64,000 nucleotides of DNA from an uncultured Acidimicrobiia bacterium. GTDB taxonomy: Bacteria; Actinomycetota; Acidimicrobiia; Spongiisociales; ZC4RG35. The first letter of the stretch is position 1, and each line of letters starts with the position of its first letter. Shown piece by piece: positions 4,326-54,025 of the stretch. The translations under genes and the position numbers were made by a program. The stretch lies in the NCBI GenBank assembly GCA_963840175.1, contig CAWIXU010000004.1, forward strand, positions 9,288 through 73,287. The letters are read 5' to 3'. The notes beneath the pieces are model-generated. The model was not told where the DNA came from, searched no databases, and was given only the letters and a program-made list of their open reading frames with translations.

Positions 4326-5200
4326 TTGTTCTTGAGCTGGCCCTCATCGCCCTCATCGCCTACAACCTGCGTTGTCGCTCTGCTTTGGATGGAGAAATCC
4401 CGTGACGAGGGCCAGCGGCAGTCGCGCAGCCACCGCTTCGTCATCGTGATCCCCGCTTACAACGAGGAGCGCGTCGTTGTCGCCCGGCCGGTCGCCGATC
4501 TGACACCACAACTAAGGGAAGGTGACGAGTTGTGGGTGCTCGCCGACCGATGCACCGACGACACGGCCGAGGTGGCGCAGGCGGCCGGAGCGCGCGTCGA
4601 CCGAACGCTCCGAGCGGGCCCGACGGAAAAGGCACCGGCACTGGCATGGTTCGTTGCCAAGCGACCGCTAGTTAGCGACGAGGCGCTCGTCGTGATCGAC
4701 GCCGACAATCGGGTCCCCGGCAAGCTCCTCGATCGGTTCGGCGCCGAACTGACCGACGGGCACTCGGTGCTGCAGGCCTACCTCGATGTGGCCAACCCCG
4801 ACGAGTCGGCGTTGGCGACCGCCTCGGCACTCTCGTATTGGGCTTCGAACCGCATGGTCCAGCTGGCGCGGGCCAACCTGGGTTGGACAGCCGATCTCGG
4901 CGGCACCGGCATGTGTCTGACTTCTCGAGGCGCTGAACGCACGCGGGCGGATTCGGGACATCGTTGGTCGAGGACCAGGACCTCGGAGTTCGCTGCTTTC
5001 TCGCCGGACACCCGGTCCGTTGGCTGCACGACGTTCGAATCGCCGATGAGAAACCTCCCACGGCCACCGTCGCTGTACGCCAACGGTCACGCTGGACAAG
5101 TGGACGTCGTCAGGTCGCTCGCCGTTGGTTGGAGAAGGTTGTCAGCCGAGCGACAGCCGGCGTCGCTTGATCTCGCGCTTGCGTCTGGTGCAACCTTCGC
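4326..5200 (+). CDS. Family 2 glycosyltransferase with a membrane N-terminus; frame disrupted.
   Basis: FVIVIPAYNEERVV, VIDADNRVPGKLL, then DLGVRCFLAGHPVRWLHDVRIADEKP and QRSRW in a second frame. These are the GT2 DXD and QxxRW hallmarks. Confidence 0.6.
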
Positions 5201-5458
5201 GGATGGGGATGGCGTTGCTCAGCGCCGCGCTGGCCGTGGCCTCGGCTCTCGGCGCGTCCTCTGCTTGCCCTGGCCGTTGTGGACGGCGGTTGCGCTGGTC
5301 CAGTTGCTCGCCCCGATCCCGTTTCTGATCCGCGACCGGGTGCCGTCTCGCTATCTGAGGAAATATCCGCTGCTGGCGTTGCTCCCACTGCTCAAGATTC
5401 CGGGCACGCTTCGTCGCAACCGGGAGTGGTATCACACGCCCCACGGGTTATCGGACGG

Positions 5459-6450: not shown

Positions 6451-7802
6451 ATGACGGATTCGGCCTGGCGCCAGCGGTTGTTTCTGGCAATGGTGGCGGT
6501 GCTCCCGCTTCATACCGTTTATCTAAGCGCCTGGATTTCGTGGAAGCCGTTCATGGTCCTCCTGGCCGTCCTGGCCCTGTGGGACCTGGGCGACGGCATT
6601 CGGCTCCGGCAGTGGCCATGGCACAAGCGAATCACGCTCGCGTTCCTTCCCTTGATGGTGGCGGTTGCGATCGGGTTCCCAGGTCCTGAGCTATCGCGAA
6701 CGATTCATCCGGCTCGCCTTAGCGCTTGTCGTCGGGTTCGGGGTGCTGGCAGTTACCGAGCGACGACTGCGCGGCGTCAGGAATGGGAGCGCGCACCCTA
6801 CGGGTCATCTTCTGGTCCGCGGCCGCCATGGCGGTGACCGGCCTGATCTTCTCGGTGCTGCTTCTCGGCCTCGGGGGGGACGAAGGAATCGACTACCTCA
6901 CAGGGTCGCGCGGTTACGACCTTCCTCTCCTCGACAAAATTGGCAAGCCCGCCTATCTCTTGTCGGGTTTCCTCGCGCTTTCCAACTGGCATCAGGACCC
7001 GGGCTATGGAGCCGCTTGGGCGGTCCTCTGGGCGACATTGGCCCTCATCGCTTCCCTCCGCGGCCTCGGAACCAAAAGTCCTCTGATCGACGGAGCGATC
7101 ATCGGTGTTCTTTGGTCCGCAGTGGTGATGGGATTCTCCCGCACCGGGTGGGTGGCGCTGGCCGTGTCGTTGGTTCTCGTGGCCTGGAAGGTGACACGGC
7201 GAGGATTGGTCAAACGGATCGTCGCTGCAACCGTTGCCCTGATCTTGTCGATGGGGCTTCTCTTCGTCGCTGATGTCGAGAATGTCGGGGGGGAGCTGCC
7301 ACTTCAGTTCGCCTTTCGGCTCCGTCAGGGCTGGGACCTCCTGGCATCGATCACCGGGCTGTTCGAGTCATCCGCAGCCTTCGAGGACCAGTTCCAGCCA
7401 TCCGAGCAACGGGCCGACGTCTGGCCGGAGTACTGGCAACTGTTCCTCGACCACCCGGTCACCGGGGTGGGCTTCGGGGTTGGCTGGGAAACCAACTCCA
7501 TCGGCCAGGAACCGCACAACTTGTTTCTCGAGCTCGGAGCAGAAACCGGGATCATCGGTCTCGTCGCTTTTGCGTTGTTGTTGGGCTTGATCATTCGCGC
7601 CGGCAGCGGAGTTCTCGGGGCGGTGGCGCTGACCGTGTCGTTCTTGCCTGCGTTCACCCAGACAGTGCTCTTCGAACCAACCTGGTGGTTCGCCGCCGGC
7701 CTGTTCTTGGCCGCGGGAGGGAAGTTCGAGGATGCCGCGGAGATGCCTGTAGAGTCGTCTGACGAGTCAGGGGTTGTCACCCCAAAACAAGCTGCTGCCT
7801 AG
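6451..7802 (+). CDS. O-antigen ligase/polymerase family (Wzy_C) polytopic membrane protein; one frame disruption.
   Basis: Many transmembrane segments. The motif HNLFLELGAETGIIGLVAFALLL is characteristic of the Wzy_C/O-antigen ligase domain. Confidence 0.65.
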
Positions 7803-14826: not shown

Positions 14827-16377
14827 TTGCGCACTCCCAGCGGAATCGAAATCGAGGTTGTCTACGACCAACCCGCCGATCCCGACAAAATCGGCAGTCC
14901 GGGTGAGTATCCGTTCACCCGCGGCCCTCATCCCACGATGTATCGCGGACGGCTCTGGACGATGCGTCAGTACGCCGGCTACGGCACCGCCGACGCCACC
15001 AATCGCCGGTTTCGTGAGCTCCTCGCCGCCGGGCAGACCGGCCTATCGACTGCCTTCGACCTGCCGACGCAGATGGGACTCGACAGCGACCACCCGTTGG
15101 CCGAGGGAGAGGTCGGCAAGGTCGGAGTGGCGATCGACACCCTCGACGACATGCGCCGTCTCTTTCGGGAGATCCCTCTCTCCGAGGTGTCCACCTCGAT
15201 GACGATCAACGCCACGGCTCCGATCCTGCTCCTGCTCTATCAGCTGGTGGCGGAGGAGCAAGGCGTCGATGGCAAGGAAATCCGGGGCACCGTGCAGAAC
15301 GACATCCTCAAGGAGTACGTCGCCCGCGGCACCTACATCTACCCGCCGGGGCCGTCGATGCGGATCGTCACCGACGTCTTCTCGTACGCGGCCAAGGAGC
15401 TCCCGGCCTTCAACCCGATTTCGATCTCCGGCTATCACATCCGCGAAGCCGGCTCCACCGCCGCCCAGGAACTCGCGTTCACGATCGCCCATGGCCTCGC
15501 CTACGTGGATGCCGCCCTGAAAGCCGGCCTCGACATCGACGACTTTGCTCCCCGGCTCTCATTCTTCTGGAACAGCCACAACCTCTTCTTCGAGGAGGTA
15601 GCCAAGTTCCGTGCAGCCCGCCGATTGTGGGCCGACCTGATGCGGAATCGCTTCGGAGCCAAAGACGAGCGGTCGTGGGCGATGCGGTTCCACACCCAGA
15701 CCGCCGGTTCGACTCTGACCGCGCAGCAGACCGGAAACAACGTGGTGCGCACGACCGTCCAGGCCATGGCCGCCATCCTCGGAGGGACGCAATCGCTGCA
15801 CACCAACTCTTTCGACGAGGCCGTTGGACTGCCGACCGACGAATCGGCCCGTCTCGCCTTGCGGACCCAGCAGGTACTCGCCCACGAATCCGGCCTCGCG
15901 GATGACAGTCGATCCGCTGGCCGGCTCCTACTTCGTCGAGGAGCTCACCAACCAGCTCGAAGCCTCGGCCCGCTCACTGCTCGACGCAGATCGAAAGGAT
16001 GGGGGGCGCGGTGGCGGCAATCGAGAGCGGGGTGGACGCAACGTCAGATCGAAGAGGCGGCCTACGAAGAGGCCCGTCGCCAGGAGTCAGGCGAATCGAT
16101 CGTGCTCGGGGTGAACCGATATGTAGTCGGCGATGAGGCTGAGATTCCGGCGTTGAGAATCGACCCTGAGCTGGAGCGCGAGCAAAAGGCGCGCCTCGGC
16201 CAATGGAAGGCAGAGCGCTCGGCAACTGAAGTCGAATCCGCCCTCGACGCCGTCACCATCGCAGCCGGAGACGGGACCAATTTGCTTTATCCCATGAAGG
16301 AAGCGCTTGTCGCCGGTGCAACCTTGGGCGAGTGTTCCGAGGCGATGCGGGCCGTGTTCGGGAGCCACCGACCGTGA
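14827..16377 (+). CDS. Methylmalonyl-CoA mutase-family catalytic (TIM-barrel) subunit without a fused B12-binding domain; one frame disruption near 15900.
   Basis: YPFTRGPHPTMYRGRLWTMRQYAGYGTA, TAFDLPTQMG, HTNSFDEAVGLPT, and a C-terminus ending VFGSHRP. This is the typical MCM/ICM large-subunit N-domain. Confidence 0.75.
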   Translation: MRTPSGIEIEVVYDQPADPDKIGSPGEYPFTRGPHPTMYRGRLWTMRQYAGYGTADATNRRFRELLAAGQTGLSTAFDLPTQMGLDSDHPLAEGEVGKVGVAIDTLDDMRRLFREIPLSEVSTSMTINATAPILLLLYQLVAEEQGVDGKEIRGTVQNDILKEYVARGTYIYPPGPSMRIVTDVFSYAAKELPAFNPISISGYHIREAGSTAAQELAFTIAHGLAYVDAALKAGLDIDDFAPRLSFFWNSHNLFFEEVAKFRAARRLWADLMRNRFGAKDERSWAMRFHTQTAGSTLTAQQTGNNVVRTTVQAMAAILGGTQSLHTNSFDEAVGLPTDESARLALRTQQVLAHESGLADDSRSAGRLLLRRGAHQPARSLGPLTARRRSKGWGARWRQSRAGWTQRQIEEAAYEEARRQESGESIVLGVNRYVVGDEAEIPALRIDPELEREQKARLGQWKAERSATEVESALDAVTIAAGDGTNLLYPMKEALVAGATLGECSEAMRAVFGSHRP

Positions 16378-17730
16378 CCACCGACCCCAAGCGAACCCGC
16401 TTTCTGATTATCGGCGCCGGCCCGGCCGGCACCGCCGCCGCCACCAACGCGGCCGCGCTAGGCGCAAAGGTCACTCTGGTCGAGGACCAGATCGTCGGTG
16501 GCGCGGCCCATCTTTGGGATTGCATTCCCTCCAAGACCATGATCGCCACCGCCGTGCGGATCGACTCGATGCGCAACGCCCCCCGGCTCGGGGTGACCGC
16601 CGCGCCCGGGCAGCGTCGACAGCGCCCAACTAGCCGAGCGAATCTCCATCATCTCCGGCGACATCAACCGCAGCTGGGTCGACCTCCTCAGCAGCCAGGC
16701 GGTCGAGATCATCAACGGGAAGGCCCGGCTGACCGGTCCAATCAGGCGATCGTCGAGGGAGATGACGGCGAACAGCACCGATCGAGCTTTGACGTCTGCC
16801 TGCTCTCGACCGGCTCGGCTCCCGCGTGTCCCGGCCTGGGCAGTCATCGACGGAGAACGAATCCTGACGACTCGCGACGCCTACGACCTCGAGCGAGGTG
16901 CCCGAACAGTTGATCGTGATCGGTTCGGGGGTCACCGGAGTCGAGTTCGTGCACATCTTCGAGTCGCTCGGTTCGGACGTCACCCTGGTGGTCAGCCGTC
17001 AGCAGATCCTTCCCCACCGCGATCCCGAGGTCGCAGCGGTGCTGGAAGAGAACTTCCTCGAAAGCGGGAGTGCGTCTGGTCATCGGCGCTCGCGCGATCG
17101 GGATTGATCGAACCGAAGACGGAGTCAGGGTTCGCTGCGACGACGGGCGGGTGGTCGAAGGCACCCACGCCTTGCTGGCGATCGGCTCGGTCCCGAACAC
17201 CGACTGATCTCGGACTGGGCGAGCTCGGCATCAAGGAGAGCGGCGGTTTCATCCAGGTCGACGAGCATCAGCGGACCTCGGTTCCCCACATCTATGCCGC
17301 AGGAGACTGCACCGGCCAGTTGCTGCTTTCCTCGGTGGCTGCAGTGCAGGGCCGGAAGATCGCCCGTCACGCGATGGGCTTGCCGGTCACACCGATCGAC
17401 TACTCCAAGGTGAGCCAGGCGATTTTCACTGAGCCCGAGATCGCCTCGGTCGGCCTTGAGGAGGCCGAGCTGGCCGCGGGAGGTCGCAAGGTGCGCACAA
17501 CCAAAGTGCCCTTTGCCGCCAACGCTCGGGCGGTGCTGCAAGGAAATCCCCGCGGCTTCGTCAAAGTCATGTCGGATCCCGCCACCGGAGTCGTCCTGGG
17601 CGGGAGCATCGTCGGCCACCGCGCCTCGGAGCTGATCGGGATCATGGCCCTCGCGGTCAAAGCGCGGGTCACGGTCAACGTCCTCGTCGACACCCTGATG
17701 GTGCACCCCTCCTCTCGGAAGCGATCAGCG
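16374..17730 (+). CDS. Flavoprotein disulfide-reductase family (LpdA-like NAD(P)H-quinone reductase, single-Cys CIPSKT type); frame disrupted.
   Basis: FLIIGAGPAGTAAA (FAD fold), WDCIPSKTMIA in place of CVNVGC, a second NAD fold (VIGSGVTGVEF), and a C-terminal dimerisation region. The GTG start overlaps the mutase stop. Confidence 0.6.
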
Positions 17731-17740
17731 AAGCAGCGGA

Positions 17741-17775
17741 GTGAGACGTCAGATCAGACGTCAGACATCAGAATG
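17741..17775 (+). repeat. Arm of the tandem GTCAGACAT/GACGTCAGA repeat family (GTGAGACGTCAGATCAGACGTCAGACATCAGAATG).
   Basis: Direct reading. Inverted relative to the arm at 18620-18656 and matching the left arm of the hairpin at 45427-45459. Confidence 0.8.
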
Positions 17776-17799
17776 TCGTTGTAGCCAACGTTCGTGAAC

Positions 17800-18630
17800 T
17801 GCCGACACACGGTTCCAGAGCGCATCTACGGCGCTCGGAGGTCCGTCGGGGCGAATGGCGAAGACATCTGCCAAGGCGGCGAACCAGTCGCCCGGATTAT
17901 CCAGCGTGGTTGAAGTCGACTCGTGCTCTCGACGTCGGGTGAGGACGCATCCCCGGAGAATGTCGGTCCCGTTCTCGAGTCGAAGCTGGGCGGTGACGAC
18001 TCCGGCAAAGCTCGATTCGGGGGACGTCGACAGGTGCTTGTGCCGTTCGCCGACACGCGTCCATCTCCACCTGGCCTGTCCGAAAGCTCATGCCCGAGAA
18101 GGAGCCGGTGGAATCGTGGGTGAAGTGCCAATCGCCAACCCCATCATCGGTCTCCTCGAAGCGAAAGGTCATTGGGTTCTGGGCATAAGTGCCCGAGATC
18201 ATTGGAAGCGGGTCGTATAGCCCGTCGCCAAGTCCCGCGTCCACCCACCAATCTCCATTCGGGTTCTCAGCCGTTGGGAGGTCATGGGCAACAAGCACCA
18301 GGTGATTCGACAACCACTTGACGTCGGGACCCTCGGGTCCATGTACGCCGCCGATGTGGCGGGTCACGTGATAGCCCAGCGAACCCAACACGAGGGATAA
18401 GGCTCCGTTCATCTGATAGCAGTAGCCGCCGCGGCTGTGGTTGGCGATTCGGTCCAGCGAGGCGGTCGGGTCGATGCTCCAGTTCTCGGACATATGAATC
18501 CACACGGATTCGTAAGGCACCCGTTCGACCCAAGCCCGATGGAGCCGGCTGCAGTGCCTCCGCGGAGGGAGGCTCCACCTCGACCCCGATGCGTCCTAGC
18601 GCCCGAACGACGTCCGGCTCTATCTGATGT
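17800..18630 (-). CDS. nat: Arylamine N-acetyltransferase; at least two frame disruptions.
   Basis: LGRIGVEVEPPSAEAL (N-terminus), VPYESV (IPFENL equivalent), and RGGYCYQMNG with the catalytic Cys, in successive minus-strand frames. Aligns by eye to the Mycobacterium smegmatis NAT N-terminus. Confidence 0.7.
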
Positions 18631-18656
18631 CTGAAATCTGATGTCTGATGTCTCAC
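18620..18656 (-). repeat. Inverted arm of the same repeat family (reverse complement GTGAGACATCAGACATCAGATTTCAGACATCAGATAG); overlaps the 5' end of nat.
   Basis: Direct reading. A possible GTG start for nat lies at the first base of the arm. Confidence 0.8.
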
Positions 18657-20154
18657 TGGTAGCTCACGTATACCGGTACGGGGTCGAGGGCTAGCACCTC
18701 CGCTGGAGTGGCTCCTCCCCGAGGGGTGTCTTCGTCGTAGAAGTTCTTCCAGCCCCAGAGGAAATTGTCGCCGTTTGCGGTTAGCGCGTCCCACGTGTCG
18801 TATTTGGTGCCGAGCGGTCCCTGTCCGTCCATCTGGATTACAGTCGCCAGCTCAGGATGAGTGACGATCTGGTCGCGGTTCTCGATCATGTCGAGACGGA
18901 ACTGATGGAGCAGGAAGAACTTCTGCGGGCAGCTTGTTCTCGCGGACGAGAGCGGCGAGCCACTCGGAAACCTGGTTGACCTCGGCGGCGTCGACCGATC
19001 CGATTTGGCGGAGATGGACCTGGTCGGGTTCCAGCCGCCACTCCGGGTCGAGGGCGAGACCGACGTGAGGCAAGCCGAGAAATTCTTCGTACGGCCTTGG
19101 CCTGGGTGAGGAAATCGGTGCGACCTGGTTGCAGATCGAGGATCACGTACACATCGTTGGCGGCGGCAACCTCGATCCACGGTCGGATGACGTCGAGGCT
19201 CATCTCTTCGGAGTAGTTGTTGTCGTCGCCCGGGAAGGCGGACGCGACGGTGGCGATGATTTCGAAGCCCAAGACGACTGGAGTCCCGTCGGCGTCATAG
19301 CCGGCGGCGATCTCAGCCGCCCTCGCGACGGCTTCCTCGGGACCCTGCTCGCCGAGGACCCCAAGCGCCGACGTGGTCGGGTTGCCATAGAGCGCCACCA
19401 ACCTTCGACCCGGGAACAGCTTGAGCCCGCCACCGGGGAGCTCTGGGGCGTTGACGAGCGCGCCGCTTTGCCATTCGATGAGCTCGGGATCAAAGCCCCC
19501 GGCGACGAACATCTCCTGCGCGGGGGTCGATCTCACCGACTCGAGCAACGCCTGGTCGCCGAGCATGTTGTGTGGATCGGCAAGGACGACCCGGTCACCC
19601 CGTAAGCCGGCGAGAGCGGTCACGGGAGCGACGAGGTCGGACCTGGTGGCGTCCGCCAGCCAGATATTTTCGCCTTCTGTGTCATCGGTTGGGTTTCTGC
19701 CGGCGGCCGCGATGGCTTCCTGTAGAGCGATCGAGTTGCTGGGAATTCCGGCCACCCCACTAGGGAGGGCGCCCCCAACGACCGAGATCGAGTGTGGTGC
19801 GAGGCGGCGTAGCTCATCTACGACCTCGGCGTCAGTCCCTGCGACCAAAAGCGGTGCCTTGATGGAGGCGGCGTAAGCGCCTGCTGCCTCGAGTTCCGGC
19901 GTCGAACCGCTCGCCACCACGACGTGGTCGGCGCACGCCAGGGTGGCCTTGGAGAGGGCGATCGAGAGCTCGACGGGGTCGGTGCTGGTGAAGATCTGCT
20001 GATCGGGTGCGATTCGACATTCCCGGGCCGTGGTTGTGGTTATCGCCTCAGTCGTGGTCGTCGCCGACGGTATTGACGAAGGCGTGCTCGTGCCACCGGC
20101 CGAAGTGCATGAAGCCAACACCAGCCAGACAATCACGGCCGATTTTTGGTTCAA
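18653..20154 (-). CDS. Lipoprotein: lipobox LASC, Thr-rich linker, N-terminal cell-wall-binding-repeat-like region and a C-terminal hydrolase-like domain; one frame disruption near 19100.
   Basis: Reverse complement of 20101-20154 gives (M)NQKSAVIVWLVLASCTSAGG. The TTG start overlaps the accA TGA. The remainder is spread over minus ORFs 18886..20343 and 18653..19180. Confidence 0.5.
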
Positions 20155-21909
20155 CGGATGACGGCCAGCACGGCTCCCAGCGAGACGGTGTCGCCGGCTT
20201 GCACCCGGAGGTCGACGACCTCGCCGGCGCTCGGGGAGCGCACCTCGTTCTCCATCTTCATCGCCTCGAGCACGCAGATCGGCTGGTTCGGCTTCGACCT
20301 TGTCGCCTGCCTTCACATGCACTTTGACGATCGTGCCCTGCATCGGCGCGCGTGACGACTCCGTCGTTGCGCACCCGACGCGGCGGGCCGGTCGAGCTTC
20401 GGCCGAGCTCTCCGCGTCATCCCGGGTCCAGTCGCGGGACCAGCGTCAGGTGACCAGTAGGTGACCGCAAACCGCCGTCCCACCGATCTCGACGGTCATG
20501 TCGCGGCGGGCGAGCTCCTCGTCCTCGGGCAGCGTTGGCTGCGACGAGCGGCGTGGCGTCGGGGAACTTGACCTGATCCTCGAGCCAGCGGGTGTAGTGA
20601 CGGCCTTCGAGAAAGTCGGGATGATCGAGCACAATGAGATGCGCAGGGATGGTTGTCGCCACCCCGGTGATCAGAAATTCCTCGAGGGCGCGACGGCCGC
20701 GTCGGATGGCTGGTCGCGATCGCTACCCCACACGACCAGCTTGGCCATCAGGTTGTCGTAGTACTGGCTCACCCTGGTGGTCGGGCTGGATCCAACCATC
20801 GACGCGCACGCCCGGCCCGGCCGGTTCGCGGTAGTCGGCGACCTGACCTGGCGTCGGCAGAAAGCCGCGCAGCGGATCCTCGGCGTTGATCCGGAATTCG
20901 ATGGCGTGGCCCCGCGGGCGTGACCGAGTCGAAGTCGAGCTTCTCGCCCTGCGGCGATCCGCAGCTGCCACTCCACGAGGTCGAGACCGGTGACCATCTC
21001 GGTGACCGTGTGTTCGACCTGGAGGCGGGTGTTCATCTCGAGGAAGTAGAACTCGCCCGATTCGGGATCGAAGAGAAACTCGACGGTGCCGGCGTTGACG
21101 TATCCGCACGAGCGCCCGGCGGCCAGGGCGGCTTCGCCCAAGAGCGTTGCGCTGTTCGGCGGTCATACCCGGGGACGGGGTTTCTTCGATCAGCTTCTGG
21201 TGTCGTCGTTGCACGGTGCAGTCGCGCTCGCCGAGGAAGACACCGTGGCCGGCTGGGTCGAAGAGGATCTGCGCTTCGACGTGACGCGGGCGCGGCAGGT
21301 ACTTCTCGACGTAGACCTCGGGGTTTCCGAAGTAGGCGTCGGCCTCGCGCCTGGCCCCGTCGAACGCCGCCACCGATCTCGCTCGCGCTGTTGACCACGC
21401 GCATTCCTTTGCCGCCGCCGCCGTGGGCGGCCTTGATCGCGATCGGATAGCCGAACTCTTCGGCGAGGGCGGCGACCGTCTCCACCGATTCGGCCGGTTC
21501 GGAGGTCCCTGGAACCGTCGGCAATCGCCGCCTCGGCGGCATGTCGCCGCGAGGTGATCTTGTCGCCCATCGCCTCGATGGCCGCGGGAGGAGGGCCGAC
21601 CCAGGTGATGCCGGCCCTGGTGACCGCCTCGGCGAACCCGGCGTTCTCGGCGAGAAAGCCGTAGCCGGGATGGATCGCATCGGCCCGAGCGGCCGCGGCG
21701 ACCTGGAGGATCTTTTGGGCGTTCAGATAGGACTCGGCCGCGGGCGCCGGTCCCACGTTCCAGGACTCGTCGGCCAACTGCACGTGCAGCGAGTCGCGAT
21801 CGAGGTCCGAATAGATGGCAATCGTGTGGATGCCCATCTCCTGGGCGGTGCGGATGACCCGCACCGCGATCTCTCCCCGGTTGGCGATGAGGAGGCGGGA
21901 AATGGTCAC
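20152..21909 (-). CDS. accA: Acyl-CoA carboxylase alpha subunit (biotin carboxylase plus C-terminal biotinyl domain); multiple frame disruptions.
   Basis: [17 protein letters not shown]-grasp [29 protein letters not shown], and the biotinyl motif [13 protein letters not shown], which is recovered only after shifting frame inside ORF 18886..20343. Confidence 0.8.
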
Positions 21910-44228: not shown

Positions 44229-44765
44229 ATGGAAGTTCGTGTTCATACGCGTAACACCAGCATCGACGATCGGGTCAGGGAACTAGCCGCCGAAAAGCTC
44301 GGCCACGCCGCGCGGGTGTTCGAAAGCCAGGTGGCCGACATGGATGTCGAGTTCTCCGAGGAGCACAACCCCCGCCTGGCAGCCGAGCGCTACCGCCTCG
44401 AGGTCACCACGGCGGCAGCTGGCAAGGTGATCCGGGTGGTTTCAACGGCGGCCTCGGCCGAAACGGCCGTTGATCAGGCCGTGGACCGCCTCAACCTCCA
44501 ACTACGGCGTCTTAAAGGGAAATTGATCGAAAAACACCGGAAACACGCCGTCCATGACGGTTTGGTCGAGCCTCCCACAGAACCCACGAACGAGATTGTT
44601 CGTATCAAGCAATTCGTTATGAAGCCGATGACCGTAGAGGAAGCAGTGCTGCAGATGGAGTTGCTTGGTCATGACTTTTTCTTCTTTCACAACGACGGCA
44701 CCCAGCGCCAGAGCGTGCTGTATCGCCGTCGGGACGGTCAATTGGGTTTGATCGAATCAGCGTGA
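44229..44765 (+). CDS. hpf: Ribosome hibernation-promoting factor, long form. Intact.
   Basis: MEVRVHTRNTSIDDRVRELAAEKL and C-terminal domain FFFFHNDGTQRQSVLYRRRDGQLGLIE. Confidence 0.85.
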   Translation: MEVRVHTRNTSIDDRVRELAAEKLGHAARVFESQVADMDVEFSEEHNPRLAAERYRLEVTTAAAGKVIRVVSTAASAETAVDQAVDRLNLQLRRLKGKLIEKHRKHAVHDGLVEPPTEPTNEIVRIKQFVMKPMTVEEAVLQMELLGHDFFFFHNDGTQRQSVLYRRRDGQLGLIESA

Positions 44766-45418
44766 AGAATCCGACTGTTCTTGTTGTCGACGACGCGCCT
44801 ATTTTTCAGGCGGGTTTGGCGGCTGCCCTCAAAGTGGAGGGCTTCGACGTCGTGGCGATTGCCTCCGATGCCCTCACTGCAATTGCTGAAGCCCGCCGTC
44901 ACCGCCCGGCTCTGGTTGTTCTGGACGTGTTGATGCCGGGGATCTCGGGTCTCGATGTCGTTGACAAGATCACCGACGCCTCGCCGGGAACCAAGGTTGT
45001 GCTGCTGACGTCGAGCGACTCCGAGGAGGACTTGCTCACGGCGATCAAGGCAGGAGCTTCCGGCTACATCATCAAAGACACGCCATTCCCCAAGCTGGTG
45101 GCGGCGATGAATGAAGTCGTCAAAGGGGGAGCCGTAGTGTCGCCCAAGCTTGCGGCCCGGCTCTTTGATGTGGTGGCCCATCTGCTGCGCAATCGGGATC
45201 TCAACGCCACCCGCCGGCCCTCTCTCACCGGTCGCGAGGTGGAGATCCTGCAATGGATCGCCGATGGTCGAACCTCGCGCGAGATAGGCGAACAGCTCTA
45301 CATCTCCGAGAACACCGTCAAGAACCACGTCCGCAACATCTTGGACAAGCTGGGGATGCAGTCCCGGCACGAAGCGGTCCGCTACGCCGAACACGCGGGA
45401 CTTCTGAATCGCCGATAG
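44762..45418 (+). CDS. NarL/LuxR-family response regulator (REC + HTH). Intact, with no adjacent kinase.
   Basis: VLVVDDAPIF...LVVLDVLMPG (phospho-acceptor Asp region) and LTGREVEILQWIADGRTSREIGEQLYISENTVKNHVRNIL. Confidence 0.85.
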   Translation: MKNPTVLVVDDAPIFQAGLAAALKVEGFDVVAIASDALTAIAEARRHRPALVVLDVLMPGISGLDVVDKITDASPGTKVVLLTSSDSEEDLLTAIKAGASGYIIKDTPFPKLVAAMNEVVKGGAVVSPKLAARLFDVVAHLLRNRDLNATRRPSLTGREVEILQWIADGRTSREIGEQLYISENTVKNHVRNILDKLGMQSRHEAVRYAEHAGLLNRR

Positions 45419-45426
45419 GCGATTCA

Positions 45427-45506
45427 GAGACGTCAGACATCAGACGTCAGACATCAGACTGGGATTCCATCTGAAGTCTGAAATCTGATGTCTGATGTCT
45501 TCTCAC
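45427..45506. repeat. Imperfect palindrome of tandem GTCAGACAT-type units (33 bp arms, 16 bp loop) between the response regulator and secA. Candidate bidirectional terminator/REP-like element.
   Basis: GAGACGTCAGACATCAGACGTCAGACATCAGAC-tgggattccatctgaa-GTCTGAAATCTGATGTCTGATGTCTTCTCAC. The arms match those at 17741-17775 and 18620-18656. Confidence 0.8.
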
Positions 45507-45528
45507 CCCCGATACCATTCCGGCCTGA

Positions 45529-48124
45529 ATGTCCATCTTTTCCAAGCTGCTCAAGGCCGGTGAAGGCAAGACCCTGCGCGAATTCGAGCGTCTCGTCGTC
45601 GAGGTCAATGCCCTCGAACCGACCATCTCAGCGCTGGATGACGCTCAACTAGCCAACCAGACCGTCGAGTTCCGGCGCCGGCTCGACGCCGGGGAGCCGC
45701 TCGATGACCTGGCCGTCGAGGCCTTCGCCACGGTCCGGGAGGCAGCGCAACGAGTCATCGGGGAGCGTCACTTCGACGTCCAGGTGATCGGCGCTTTGGC
45801 ACTCCATCGGGGGATGGTGGCCGAGATGAAGACCGGCGAGGGCAAAACCCTGGTTTCGTCGATGCCCGCCTATCTCAACGCCCTTCCTGGCACCGGCGTG
45901 CACATCGTCACCGTCAACGACTACCTCGCCTCCCGCGACGCCGACTGGATGGGCGCCATCCATCGTTTCCTCGGGCTCAACGTCGGGCTCATCCAAACCG
46001 GTATGGAACCCGGAAAGCGGCAATCCGGCCTACGCCGCCGACATCACCTACGGAACCAACAACGAGTTCGGGTTCGACTATCTGCGTGACAACATGGCGA
46101 TGCGGGCGAGCGACCGTGTCCAGCGCGGCCACGTTTATGCGATCGTCGATGAGGTCGACTCGATCCTGATCGACGAAGCCCGCACCCCGTTGATCATTAG
46201 CGGCCGGCTGTCGGATGCGGCCAAGTGGTATCGAGACTTCGCTCGAATTGCGAACCGGTTACGACGCGATGAGCACTACGAAGTCGATGAAGCCAAGCGA
46301 CAGGTATTGACCACCGAGGAAGGCGTCGGATTCGTCGAAGAGATACTCGGAGTCGAAAACCTCTATGACCACGCCGCGGTCGACTTCGTCCACCATCTCG
46401 AGTCATCGCTGCGAGCCAAGGAGCTCTACCAGCGGGACGTGGAATATCTCGTTGACCAGGGCGAAGTCAAGATCGTTGACGAATTCACCGGGCGCGTACT
46501 CGAAGGTCGTCGTTATTCAGAAGGGCTTCACCAGGCCATCGAGGCGAAGGAAGGGGTGAAGATCAAAGAAGAGAATCAGACCCTCGCCACGATCACTCTC
46601 CAGAACTACTTCCGGCTCTACCAGAAGCTTGCCGGGATGACCGGCACCGCCGAAACCGAAGCGGCCGAGCTGGCGCAGATTTATGGACTCGAAGTGCTGG
46701 TCATCCCGCCGAACCGGACCGTGGCGCGAGCCGACCAACCCGACCTGGTCTTTAAGTCAGAGGATGCCAAGTTCCAAGCAGTCGTCGATGACATCGTCGC
46801 GCGCCATGAGGCGCAACAGCCCATCCTGCTGGGCACCGTCTCGATCGAGAAGTCCGAGCGTCTCTCGAAGATGTTGCAAAAGCGGGGCATCGAGCATGAA
46901 GTGCTCAACGCCAAGAATCATGCCCGGGAGGCTGAAATCATCGCGCAGGCGGGGCGTCCCGGCGCGGTGACCGTGGCCACCAACATGGCCGGGCGGGGAG
47001 TCGACATCAGGCTGGGTGGGAATCCCGAAGGTCTGGCGCGCGTCGAGCTCAAGCGCCAGCAGGTGCCGGAAGAGGAGTTCGAGAAAAAGCTCGCCGAAAC
47101 CACTGCCCGCTACGCCGCCGAGATCGCTCCGATCAAGGAAAAGGTGATCGAAAGCGGTGGGCTTTACGTCGTGGGCACCGAGCGTCACGAATCCCGCCGG
47201 ATCGACAATCAGCTGCGTGGTCGTTCGGGCCGCCAGGGTGATCCGGGCGAGTCCCGGTTCTATTTGTCGCTGGGAGACGACCTGATGCGTCGTTTCTCTG
47301 GGGATCGAGTTTCGTCGTTGATGGATCGGATGAAGATTCCCGACGACGTACCCATCGAGGCCGGCATGGTGACCAAGGCCATCGAACGAGCGCAGAAAAC
47401 GGTGGAAGCACAGAACTTTGAGCTTCGCAAGAACGTCCTCAAATTCGATGAGGTGATGAACAAGCAAAGAGAAGTCATCTACGACTGGCGCGTGGATTTG
47501 CTCGAGGCGTCGGGTGAGGATCTGGTCACAGAATGGATCGAGGTCGTAGTCGCCGATACCGTCGAGGCGGTTTTTCCACCCGAGCTCGCACCGTCGGAAT
47601 GGGATTGGGAATTGCTCAACAAAGAGCTAGTTCAGATTTATCCGTCAACGCTCAAAGAGCCGGGACCGGAAGGATCCTCGCTGGAGGATGTCATCGACGC
47701 GGCCGTCGAAGAGGCCAACGCGGCCTATGCAGCGAAGAGCAAGGAATTGGGGCTCGAGAACATGCGCCAGGTCGAGCGCCAGGTGATTCTGTCGGTGATC
47801 GACAACAAGTGGCGCGAGCACCTATCCGAAATGGACTACCTGCGCGCTGGAATCGGCCTGCGCGCCATGGGCCAACGCGATCCGCTGGTCGAATATCAGC
47901 GCGAGGGCTACTCGATGTTCAGCGAACTGGTCGAATCGGTGAAGCGTGACACCGTTCGCTATTTGTTCCACGTCCAATTGGCGGAGCCCGCCGCCCCGGC
48001 TGCCCCCAAAGTCGTCAACGATGATCAGTCAAAGTCAATTCGAAGCAGCGGCGCCGTGGGCCGCAACGATCCCTGCCCATGTGGCAGTGGCAAGAAATAC
48101 AAACGCTGCCACGGTGCGGCGTAA
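45529..48124 (+). CDS. secA: Preprotein translocase ATPase SecA; one frame disruption near 46030.
   Basis: [42 protein letters not shown], and C-terminal zinc finger [14 protein letters not shown]. Confidence 0.9.
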
Positions 48125-53620: not shown

Positions 53621-53673
53621 CCGACGCAGCTTCTCTCCCCGACCAACTTCGGCTCGGCCGTTCTTCGTAATCG

Positions 53674-54025
53674 TGGAGGCGGCGGGAATCGGACCCGCGT
53701 CCCATGAGTCGTCAGCGCCGGCATCTCCGAGCGCAGCCGTCGGCGAGCTTGTCGGCAAGAAGGACCCCAACGGCGGGCTTCCCACTCGCTTATCCGGAGT
53801 TGATCTTTGCCCTCCGGTCCCGGATCCCGGAGGACGCATCCTGCATTGCGACGCCCGATTCCGGCGAGGCAGGCGCCCACCGGGCGGACGGGCTGCGTTA
53901 TTTAGGCAGCCAGTGCGAAGTTGTCTTCGGCACTTGTGTTTGTTTCCGGCTCTTTAACGAGGTTCCGGAGACCTCGGCTCGCTTCCGACGCATCAACACT
54001 CATGGTCGAAACCATTTCGCCCCCA
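53674..54025 (-). ncRNA. ssrA: tmRNA (ssrA). Predicted tag peptide AEDNFALAA.
   Basis: Minus-strand 5' end GGGGGCGAAATGGTTTCGACCATGAG. Tag reading frame GCC GAA GAC AAC TTC GCA CTG GCT GCC TAA. The 3' end is tRNA-like: GGACGCGGGTCCGATTCCCGCCGCCTCCA. Confidence 0.85.

Follow-up and report, generated by a model that had tools for sequence, protein, structure and literature searches.

Of the long simple repeats of bacteria, those with heptamer units are the most abundant, and their origin was ascribed to polymerase slippage (Mrazek 2007, as summarised in PMC4679880 and PMC4692102). According to a paper of 2015, detailed literature on intergenic heptamer repeats was not available at the time (PMC4692102). 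In Cyanobacteria, STRR sequences are tandem 7-bp units, dispersed, intergenic and often positioned near gene 3′ ends, and their complementary arrays fold as intergenic hairpins, such as those between hupS and hupL, for which transcript stabilisation, translational coupling and termination were proposed (PMC2670836). Tandem units, foldable arrays and the functional proposals are shared by the element studied here, a hairpin of GACRTCA units at 45427-45500 of the window, by which we mean the whole stretch of 64,000 nucleotides analysed. Its units are 7 bp long and its complementary arrays can fold between genes; as regards dispersal, the 64 kb contain two loci with four arms in all, each placed in intergenic sequence or at a gene end. 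On the other hand, the hosts are Acidimicrobiia and other non-cyanobacteria, the STRR1-3 units are absent, and the unit is GACRTCA instead of CCCCAGT, TTGGTCA or CAACAGT. Merging with stop codons and a dominant polarity, both seen here, are features for which no such report was found for STRR. The element is therefore identified with high confidence as an STRR-like, heptamer-based intergenic palindrome which, judged from its sequence, is expected to work like STRR yet lies outside the named STRR families.

Other heptamer families show further parallels. The GGGAATC arrays of Xanthomonas and the GGGGAYT arrays of Nostoc are also intergenic and vary in length among close relatives, and some of the GGGAATC repeats form inverted pairs able to fold into stem-loops (PMC4692102). 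Unlike these units, GACRTCA is not G-rich, which makes a G-quadruplex impossible. TAACTGA, present in Beggiatoaceae, Cyanobacteria and Bacteroidetes, is likewise one unit found across phyla without a known vector (PMC4679880). However, its arrays precede start codons closely, share a single orientation and hardly ever form inverted pairs, whereas GACRTCA arrays adjoin stop codons and are typically palindromic. What is new in our case is a non-cyanobacterial heptamer family with a placement rule, consisting of one polarity and of outer units merged with stop codons, the significance of which would grow if the rule reflects function or an insertion mechanism.

Among elements not built from heptamers, the REP, REPIN and BIME sequences of proteobacteria are short, dispersed, intergenic palindromes as well, and many of them follow a stop codon or separate convergent genes. 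Messages that end in a REP hairpin can be shielded by it from 3′ exonucleases, while REPINs are tied to the RAYT transposase and reach hundreds of copies per genome. The arms of REP are not tandem repeats, and the unique palindromic arm of such elements (a unit of 20-40 nt, arranged as a doublet) is not what is found here, where the arms are heptamer arrays with a unit number varying by strain. A RAYT-type gene was not seen near any array examined, and two loci in 64 kb stand against the hundreds of REPIN copies. The terminal inverted repeats with target-site duplication that define MITEs do not describe the hairpin either. Inverted pairs of the neisserial DUS (GCCGTCTGAA) share the GTCTGAA core with the units of the right arm and form hairpins acting as terminators after genes (PMC2397512). 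Yet DUS is a single 10-12-mer occurring about once per kb, while the motif here is confined to tandem arrays, with single units (CAGAC[AGT]T) at chance level, 20 in the window against 17.1 expected; an uptake sequence was rejected because of this density. Finally, Rho-independent terminators are also stem-loops immediately after coding regions, including those of convergent genes, but they combine a GC-rich stem with a U-tract, whereas here the U-tract is missing, the stem of about 30 bp is far longer, and such hairpins are found inside operons before essential genes. Our preferred reading, to which we would assign a probability of about 0.5, is that the hairpin belongs to a dispersed group of heptamer palindromes, gained recently, shaped by slippage and acting as an RNA stem at a gene end.

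The hairpin between the response-regulator gene and secA

The hairpin is located between a response-regulator gene (44762-45418, plus strand), which comes after hpf, and secA (45529-48124, plus strand). The regulator is an ORF with a REC domain and a GerE/LuxR HTH domain (PF00072 and PF00196, detected in L001 and L002, which encode an identical protein). Its distance from the start of the hairpin is 9 nt, measured from the stop codon (TAG, 45416-45418), and the secA ATG lies 29 nt past the end of the hairpin. Repeat finding recovered 45428-45458 and 45470-45500 as an imperfect inverted pair with 31-nt arms, 87% complementary and 11 nt apart. The left (alpha) arm (45427-45459) starts with GA, continues with alternating GACGTCA and GACATCA units, two of each, and ends with GAC; it was detected as a direct repeat and by TRF with periods of 7 and 14, and corresponds to 4.6 heptamer units or, with a match of 100% in TRF, to a 14-nt double unit repeated 2.3 times. 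The right (beta) arm (45470-45500), delimited by TRF and by the fold, consists of TCTGAAG, TCTGAAA, two TCTGATG units and a terminal TCT, and holds TGA in all three frames. Between them, the loop TGGGATTCCA (45460-45469) is a near-palindrome with a small apical stem in the fold; in related strains it is the perfect palindrome TGGGATCCCA. The initial annotation had described arms of 33 bp made of tandem 8-9 nt units around a 16 bp loop. Their tandem construction is confirmed, but the unit is the heptamer GACRTCA and its complement, with TRF period 7 and 4.4-4.6 copies per arm, and the loop is 10-11 nt long.

In the minimum-energy fold the arms pair over 30 bp, with 3 mismatches and one G.T. The 136-nt region folded as RNA reaches -72.5 kcal/mol in comparison with -36.9 +/- 4.0 for shuffled sequences (z = -9.0; none of 200 shuffles was equal), and folding of the hairpin region as DNA gives z = -7.5. 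Together with the inverted pair, this bears out the hairpin as annotated from the letters alone, and it answers the RNA folding proposed there as a check. In a 90-nt sliding scan the hairpin has the second-lowest energy in the window (-53.0; mean -30.8, sd 6.1), reached at 48% GC, while the remaining top-scoring 90-nt segments have 67-80% GC. Strong gene-end hairpins are not general in the window, which indicates that they are not a general requirement here.

The absence of other copies had been named as a finding that would speak against the initial interpretation, and copies do occur, around the arylamine N-acetyltransferase (NAT) gene discussed below, in other genomes and in metagenomes. 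Within the window, the motif CAGACRTCAGAC (at most 1 mismatch) has 11 matches where 0.87 would be expected, and none of them is outside four arms, two at the solo hairpin and two at 17742-17775 and 18622-18655. All 12 window matches of GACRTCAGA are inside the same four arms, and no isolated seed units or degenerate copies were detected in the window beyond them. The arms correspond to the generic definition of long heptamer SSRs, i.e. head-to-tail units of 5-11 nt in arrays longer than chance. At the Rfam gathering score the only hit in the window, and none at the hairpin, was a tmRNA gene (53671-54024, minus strand; RF00023, 157.7 bits) located downstream of smpB; at a permissive threshold the hairpin draws only sub-threshold matches to generic miRNA and snoRNA hairpins. 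In the full-text literature, no mention of the repeat sequence or of any phase of the heptamer was found. Three further candidates were discarded: an attC-like site has its core motifs wrongly placed and lacks an integrase, resemblance to the Tn3 terminal repeat (GGGGTCTGACGCTCAG) is due to chance, and a coding repeat is incompatible with stops in three frames on one strand.

A second, small and perfect hairpin (45403-45428, plus strand), overlooked in the initial annotation, precedes the large one. Its 11-bp arms (45403-45413 and 45418-45428) enclose a 4-nt loop that contains the regulator stop codon. The 5′ arm is formed by the last codons of the regulator, and the 3′ arm, GGCGATTCAGA, which does not code, looks like these codons copied in inverted form, as would result from strand switching. 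This stop-codon hairpin is partly conserved in L001, L002 and L281.

On the secA side, alignment revealed the hexamer TACCAT, a -10-like TANNNT (45513-45518, plus strand), 10 nt before the ATG. Relatives devoid of the hairpin keep an equivalent hexamer (TAGCAT, TAAACT) 7-9 nt 5′ of the secA ATG, and TACCAT could possibly be secA's own promoter; a scan for sigma-70 consensus promoters around the hairpin gave no match. The nearest homologues of the neighbouring genes are from Acidimicrobiia. In the assembly, secA carries a frameshift near 46090, and frameshifts are also present in the lpd-like gene (16332-17744), in the NAT gene (17761-18656) and in the neighbouring gene X (18653-20343). The genes are intact in relatives (L002 and L281 for secA; L002, L281 and L122 for the whole set), and the frameshifts look like homopolymer indel errors of a long-read metagenome assembly rather than marks of real pseudogenes.

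Gain and strain variation at the regulator-secA site

The hairpin is present in the window, in L001, L002 and L281-L285 and in the metagenome contig L396, and the carriers fetched by protein have a regulator identity of at least 97%. It is missing in L291 (regulator 90% identical), which has a plain 55-nt spacer, and in L292-L299 (81% identical), with a plain 42-nt spacer, while the downstream segment CCGATA..ATG is conserved in all of these hairpin-less loci. From these alignments, the simplest reading is one gain on the branch to the clade of the window, and the solo copy therefore represents a filled site and not an empty one. The proposal that it is the empty-site form of the structure flanking NAT is not supported, given both the plain spacers of the sister lineages and a related locus, L124, where NAT is present without array B. 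In comparison with the empty sites, about 30 nt are replaced at the solo hairpin and nothing is duplicated; no target-site duplication was found at the solo copy (flanks GCGATTCA and ACCCCCGA).

Such a dated gain at a conserved locus, followed by changes of unit number at the strain level, is a new observation. Over the aligned spacer region the strains are about 92% identical (mean column identity), yet the left arm has 3, 4, 5 or 7 units depending on the strain, and the hairpin lengths differ in steps of 7 or 14 nt. The apical unit CTTCAGA precedes the palindromic loop in some strains and follows it in others. In L396 the arms are unbalanced, with 7 and 3 units, which indicates that full pairing is not maintained. 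The differences in unit number suggest that arrays would grow and shrink by replication slippage in 7- or 14-nt steps, and the position of CTTCAGA suggests that the apex could be rearranged through strand switching within the palindrome. It should be noted that the repeat units can shift in register, so that neither alignments nor counts of covariation are reliable.

These data lead to the main rival of our reading, a purely neutral origin, according to which the array is a neutral or selfish slippage microsatellite that persists where it is harmless, i.e. in intergenic sequence just past stop codons. The unstable unit numbers and unbalanced arms are in line with it, as is the fact that close relatives without the repeat show no visible consequence. 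The palindrome itself would require little explanation, because the GACGTC core is self-complementary and GACGTCA differs from its complement GACGTCT in one base of seven, so that a plain array is already a near-palindrome and nearly a hairpin. Nevertheless, as a complete account we consider a neutral origin doubtful, for reasons of arm similarity and placement given in the next sections.

Short-read contigs of the same locus (L286-L290) mostly break off within the left arm or some 40 nt short of its end, and the arm sequence was confirmed at the contig end in 4 of the 5. The heptamer repeat breaks short-read assemblies, which is a practical point for metagenomics.

Arrays around the arylamine N-acetyltransferase gene

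The remaining two arms of the window surround the NAT gene (17761-18656, minus strand; two frameshifts; PF00797 on the 120 homologues listed). Arm A, of the alpha type (17742-17775, plus strand), begins with the lpd stop codon (TGA, 17742-17744) and contains the NAT stop codon (17761-17763, minus strand), so the protein ends with RHSDV derived from the array. Arm B, of the beta type (18622-18655, plus strand), is joined directly to the gene X stop codon (18653-18655, reading TCA on the plus strand). NAT has a single in-frame start, a GTG at 18654-18656 on the minus strand, overlapping the X stop as GTGA, with an ATG in L123, and array B would be read as the NAT residues MRHQTSDFRHQ. A homologue with 85% identity (P0002) is annotated with the array-derived start. 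In addition to the placement rule and the dated gain, a third novelty, seen at this locus, is that a gene takes its first and last codons from array sequence.

The solo arms were initially said to match those around the NAT gene, and this holds arm for arm: identity is 97% between the left arms and 94% between the right arms, while cross pairs reach 83-88%. Such arm-specific similarity of the two window loci points to copying between loci and is unexplained by plain slippage; a neutral microsatellite likewise leaves it without explanation.

Similarity of this kind could also be expected if the element were mobile or recombinogenic, with NAT as a cargo in the loop of a former X-lpd hairpin. The arms around NAT follow the canonical left-right order, each with its outer end on a stop codon, and arms A and B together have a pairing potential of -41 to -45 kcal/mol. 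The junction between X and lpd is variable, being occupied by NAT in four lineages, by a 2.1-kb cargo in L421 and by a heptamer hairpin alone in L422, and NAT homologues at 65-66% identity are found in other gene contexts. Moreover, 33-nt arms composed of the same units are numerous in an Oscillospiraceae genome, where they form inverted pairs. Yet L124 keeps the X-NAT-lpd order without array B and has only two proto-units, at the 6-nt spacer between NAT and lpd. Its NAT is 69% and its X 67% identical to those of the window; from this parallel divergence NAT was seemingly at the locus before the arms, arrays of this kind being variable among strains about 92% identical. In L124 the NAT gene has a non-repetitive N-terminal extension of similar length (13 vs 14 residues), and its last codons, TCCGATCTCTGA, are homologous to part of arm A, while L122 retains a single heptamer unit beside the lpd stop. 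NAT thus appears, from these comparisons, to be older at its locus than its arms. Furthermore, a target-site duplication is not visible, and the hairpin of L422 consists of a different heptamer. ORF clustering within about 8 kb of some 240 arrays found no recurring mobility or binding protein, only generic clusters of ABC ATPases, DEAD/RecQ helicases, ECF sigma factors and epimerases. Taken with the evidence on both sides, a cargo origin of NAT is improbable. We regard as similarly improbable its extended form, in which alpha/beta hairpins would be a transposase-less copy-and-paste family spread across soil phyla, with arms or loops as landing sites and NAT as a captured cassette. According to the preferred reading, the arms around NAT would be two more arrays of the heptamer family at the ends of a long-resident gene, parts of which may now be read as its first and last codons.

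The lineages with other contents at this junction deserve a short description. In L422, also from Acidimicrobiia, X and lpd are directly convergent and NAT is absent; the 73-nt spacer (5151-5227) is a (GCAGTAG)n hairpin fused to both stop codons, with an RNA fold of -42.9 kcal/mol (z = -4.3). Its like architecture indicates that the phenomenon is wider than one unit. In L421, a REP-like hairpin of 57 nt (GTTTTCGCGCATCAAACGCAACC..GGTTGCGTTTGATGC) is present twice in direct orientation (4959-5016 and 7071-7129), once directly after each flanking stop codon, and the two copies bracket the 2.1-kb segment, which carries a permease-like ORF and an alpha/beta hydrolase. In L122, an unrelated insert of about 250 nt (6832-7085) with CCCCCCGGAGGGGGG-type palindromes, absent from the window, separates NAT from lpd.

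Placement of the heptamer family and its possible role at gene ends

Outside the window, a scan of genome collections with the query AGACRTCAGACRTCAGA gave at least 119 matching stretches, in most of which the unit is repeated 3-15 times in tandem; hairpins are present in about 20 of the loci fetched. The matches listed include several Acidimicrobiia and Gemmatimonadota MAGs, but also Bacteroidota, Gammaproteobacteria, Firmicutes and others, and more loci were found in the related MAGs L046, L070, L096 and L010. In metagenomes, at least 120 stretches match a 22-mer in which three unit variants are specified, and the GC of these loci ranges between 0.31 and 0.73. The occurrence across phyla was at one point considered a sign that the motif is special, and this was dropped after a comparison in viral contigs, where the heptamer has 24 stretches vs 35, 29 and 68 for three composition-matched control heptamers with palindromic cores. 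As it is no commoner than the controls, presence across phyla alone is no evidence of a shared function.

Placement, on the other hand, obeys clear rules. Among the matches listed, about 88% of the arrays are intergenic and the polarity (CAGACRT)n-loop-(AYGTCTG)n is favoured 50 to 6. The 34 non-redundant high-GC hairpins include 10 between convergent, 14 between tandem and 4 between divergent genes, with stop codons 1-15 nt from the arm and start codons mostly at distances of 16-60 nt or more. Of 99 arm ends, 49 have a stop triplet whose last base is no more than 7 nt from the outer unit, compared with 18% at random positions, and the usual stop-fused forms, TAGAC.. and TGAGAC.., are repeat units with one base altered. 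In L046 the hairpin extends from stop codon to stop codon, while in L096 and L010 it separates rplK from rplA and pafA from pafB, respectively. A neutral repeat would account for the intergenic bias, since a 7-nt unit with TGA in all frames is not tolerated inside genes. However, tolerance alone does not predict a polarity of 50:6 or stop fusion at about half of the arm ends.

Hairpins lying tight against stop codons and between convergent genes fit a role at the gene end. In the mechanism we favour, transcription of the hpf-regulator operon would let the repeat fold as an RNA stem of about 30 bp right behind the stop codon, the long stem that had already been anticipated from the sequence. 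This stem would most likely mark or protect the 3′ end of the upstream message, either as an obstacle to 3′ exonucleases or as a site where read-through is paused or attenuated, and cleavage by RNase III is a further possibility. Expression of secA would probably continue, with transcription either reading through the stem or being driven by the conserved -10-like hexamer that follows it. Considering its structure and position, a role of the hairpin at RNA 3′ ends, as marker, stabiliser or attenuator, is plausible. If such hairpins do set mRNA 3′ ends, they matter for operon and terminator annotation in uncultured high-GC soil bacteria, in which U-tract terminators are scarce.

The two functions initially suggested, terminator and mRNA stabiliser, are plausible as candidates, a terminator of the classical kind being the less likely. 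A canonical Rho-independent terminator of the hpf-regulator transcript would agree with a strong stem right after the stop codon and with related hairpins between convergent genes. But the stem is followed by UCUUCUCACCCCC, without a U-tract, on which intrinsic termination by mycobacterial RNA polymerase depends. A scan of 44500-46200 returned 0 terminator-like sites (tail TCTTCTCACCCCC), the essential secA begins only 29 nt further, and like hairpins lie inside the conserved operons rplK-rplA and pafA-pafB. A bias towards the sense strand is absent too, sense RNA being the more stable in 9 of 17 cases (p = 0.49). The missing U-tract, the proximity of secA and the lack of strand bias make a classical intrinsic terminator very unlikely. 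The same count is compatible with a neutral repeat, and it does not single out RNA over DNA as the selected level.

It is also conceivable, if quite unlikely, that the array is a set of binding or cleavage sites for a protein, such as an RNA-binding regulator or RNase E, or a DNA-uptake signal. The unit core CAGAC recurs across phyla, and each CAGACRU unit fits the mycobacterial RNase E motif RN|CNU (PMC10641625). For an uptake signal speaks the GTCTGAA core of DUS, whose inverted pairs act as terminators (PMC2397512), and the TAACTGA repeats offer a precedent for an RNA-binding regulator (PMC4679880). These sites are, however, base-paired and hidden in the hairpin, and by our own estimate a random heptamer array holds RNCNU with a chance of about 0.2 per strand. 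Single arms, counted by hand, are without bias relative to the transcription strand (21 vs 17), no candidate protein was found beside the arrays, and the chance-level frequency of single units given above stands against the roughly one copy per kb of uptake sequences. As for the positions of the RN|CNU fits, they are at 45429-45459 and, on the minus strand, at 18622-18652, while the complementary arm does not fit.

Several arrays from other genomes depart from the forms described so far. In Oscillospiraceae/Acutalibacteraceae MAGs (L038, L065, L072, L094, L101 and L114), a conserved arm of 33 nt, GAGACRTCAGAYGATCAGACRTCAGACRTCAGAC, which consists of the same heptamer, is found many times in each genome, arranged in a MITE-like manner as inverted pairs 110-290 nt apart around hairpin-rich spacers. 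The rare reverse order (TCTGAYG)n ... (CAGACAT)n was found in L097 (5396-5486) and L109 (3613-3711; Chitinophagaceae MAG), where the arrays bracket a canonical terminator composed of a GC-stem and a T-tract. Much longer arrays, with 9-15 units, are present in Acidimicrobiia MAGs from another study (L010, 4235-4294; L021, 775-910; L088, 26-219), and their hairpins pair a CAGATCT or CAGACTT arm with a GTCTGAT arm, with a regular mismatch in each unit.
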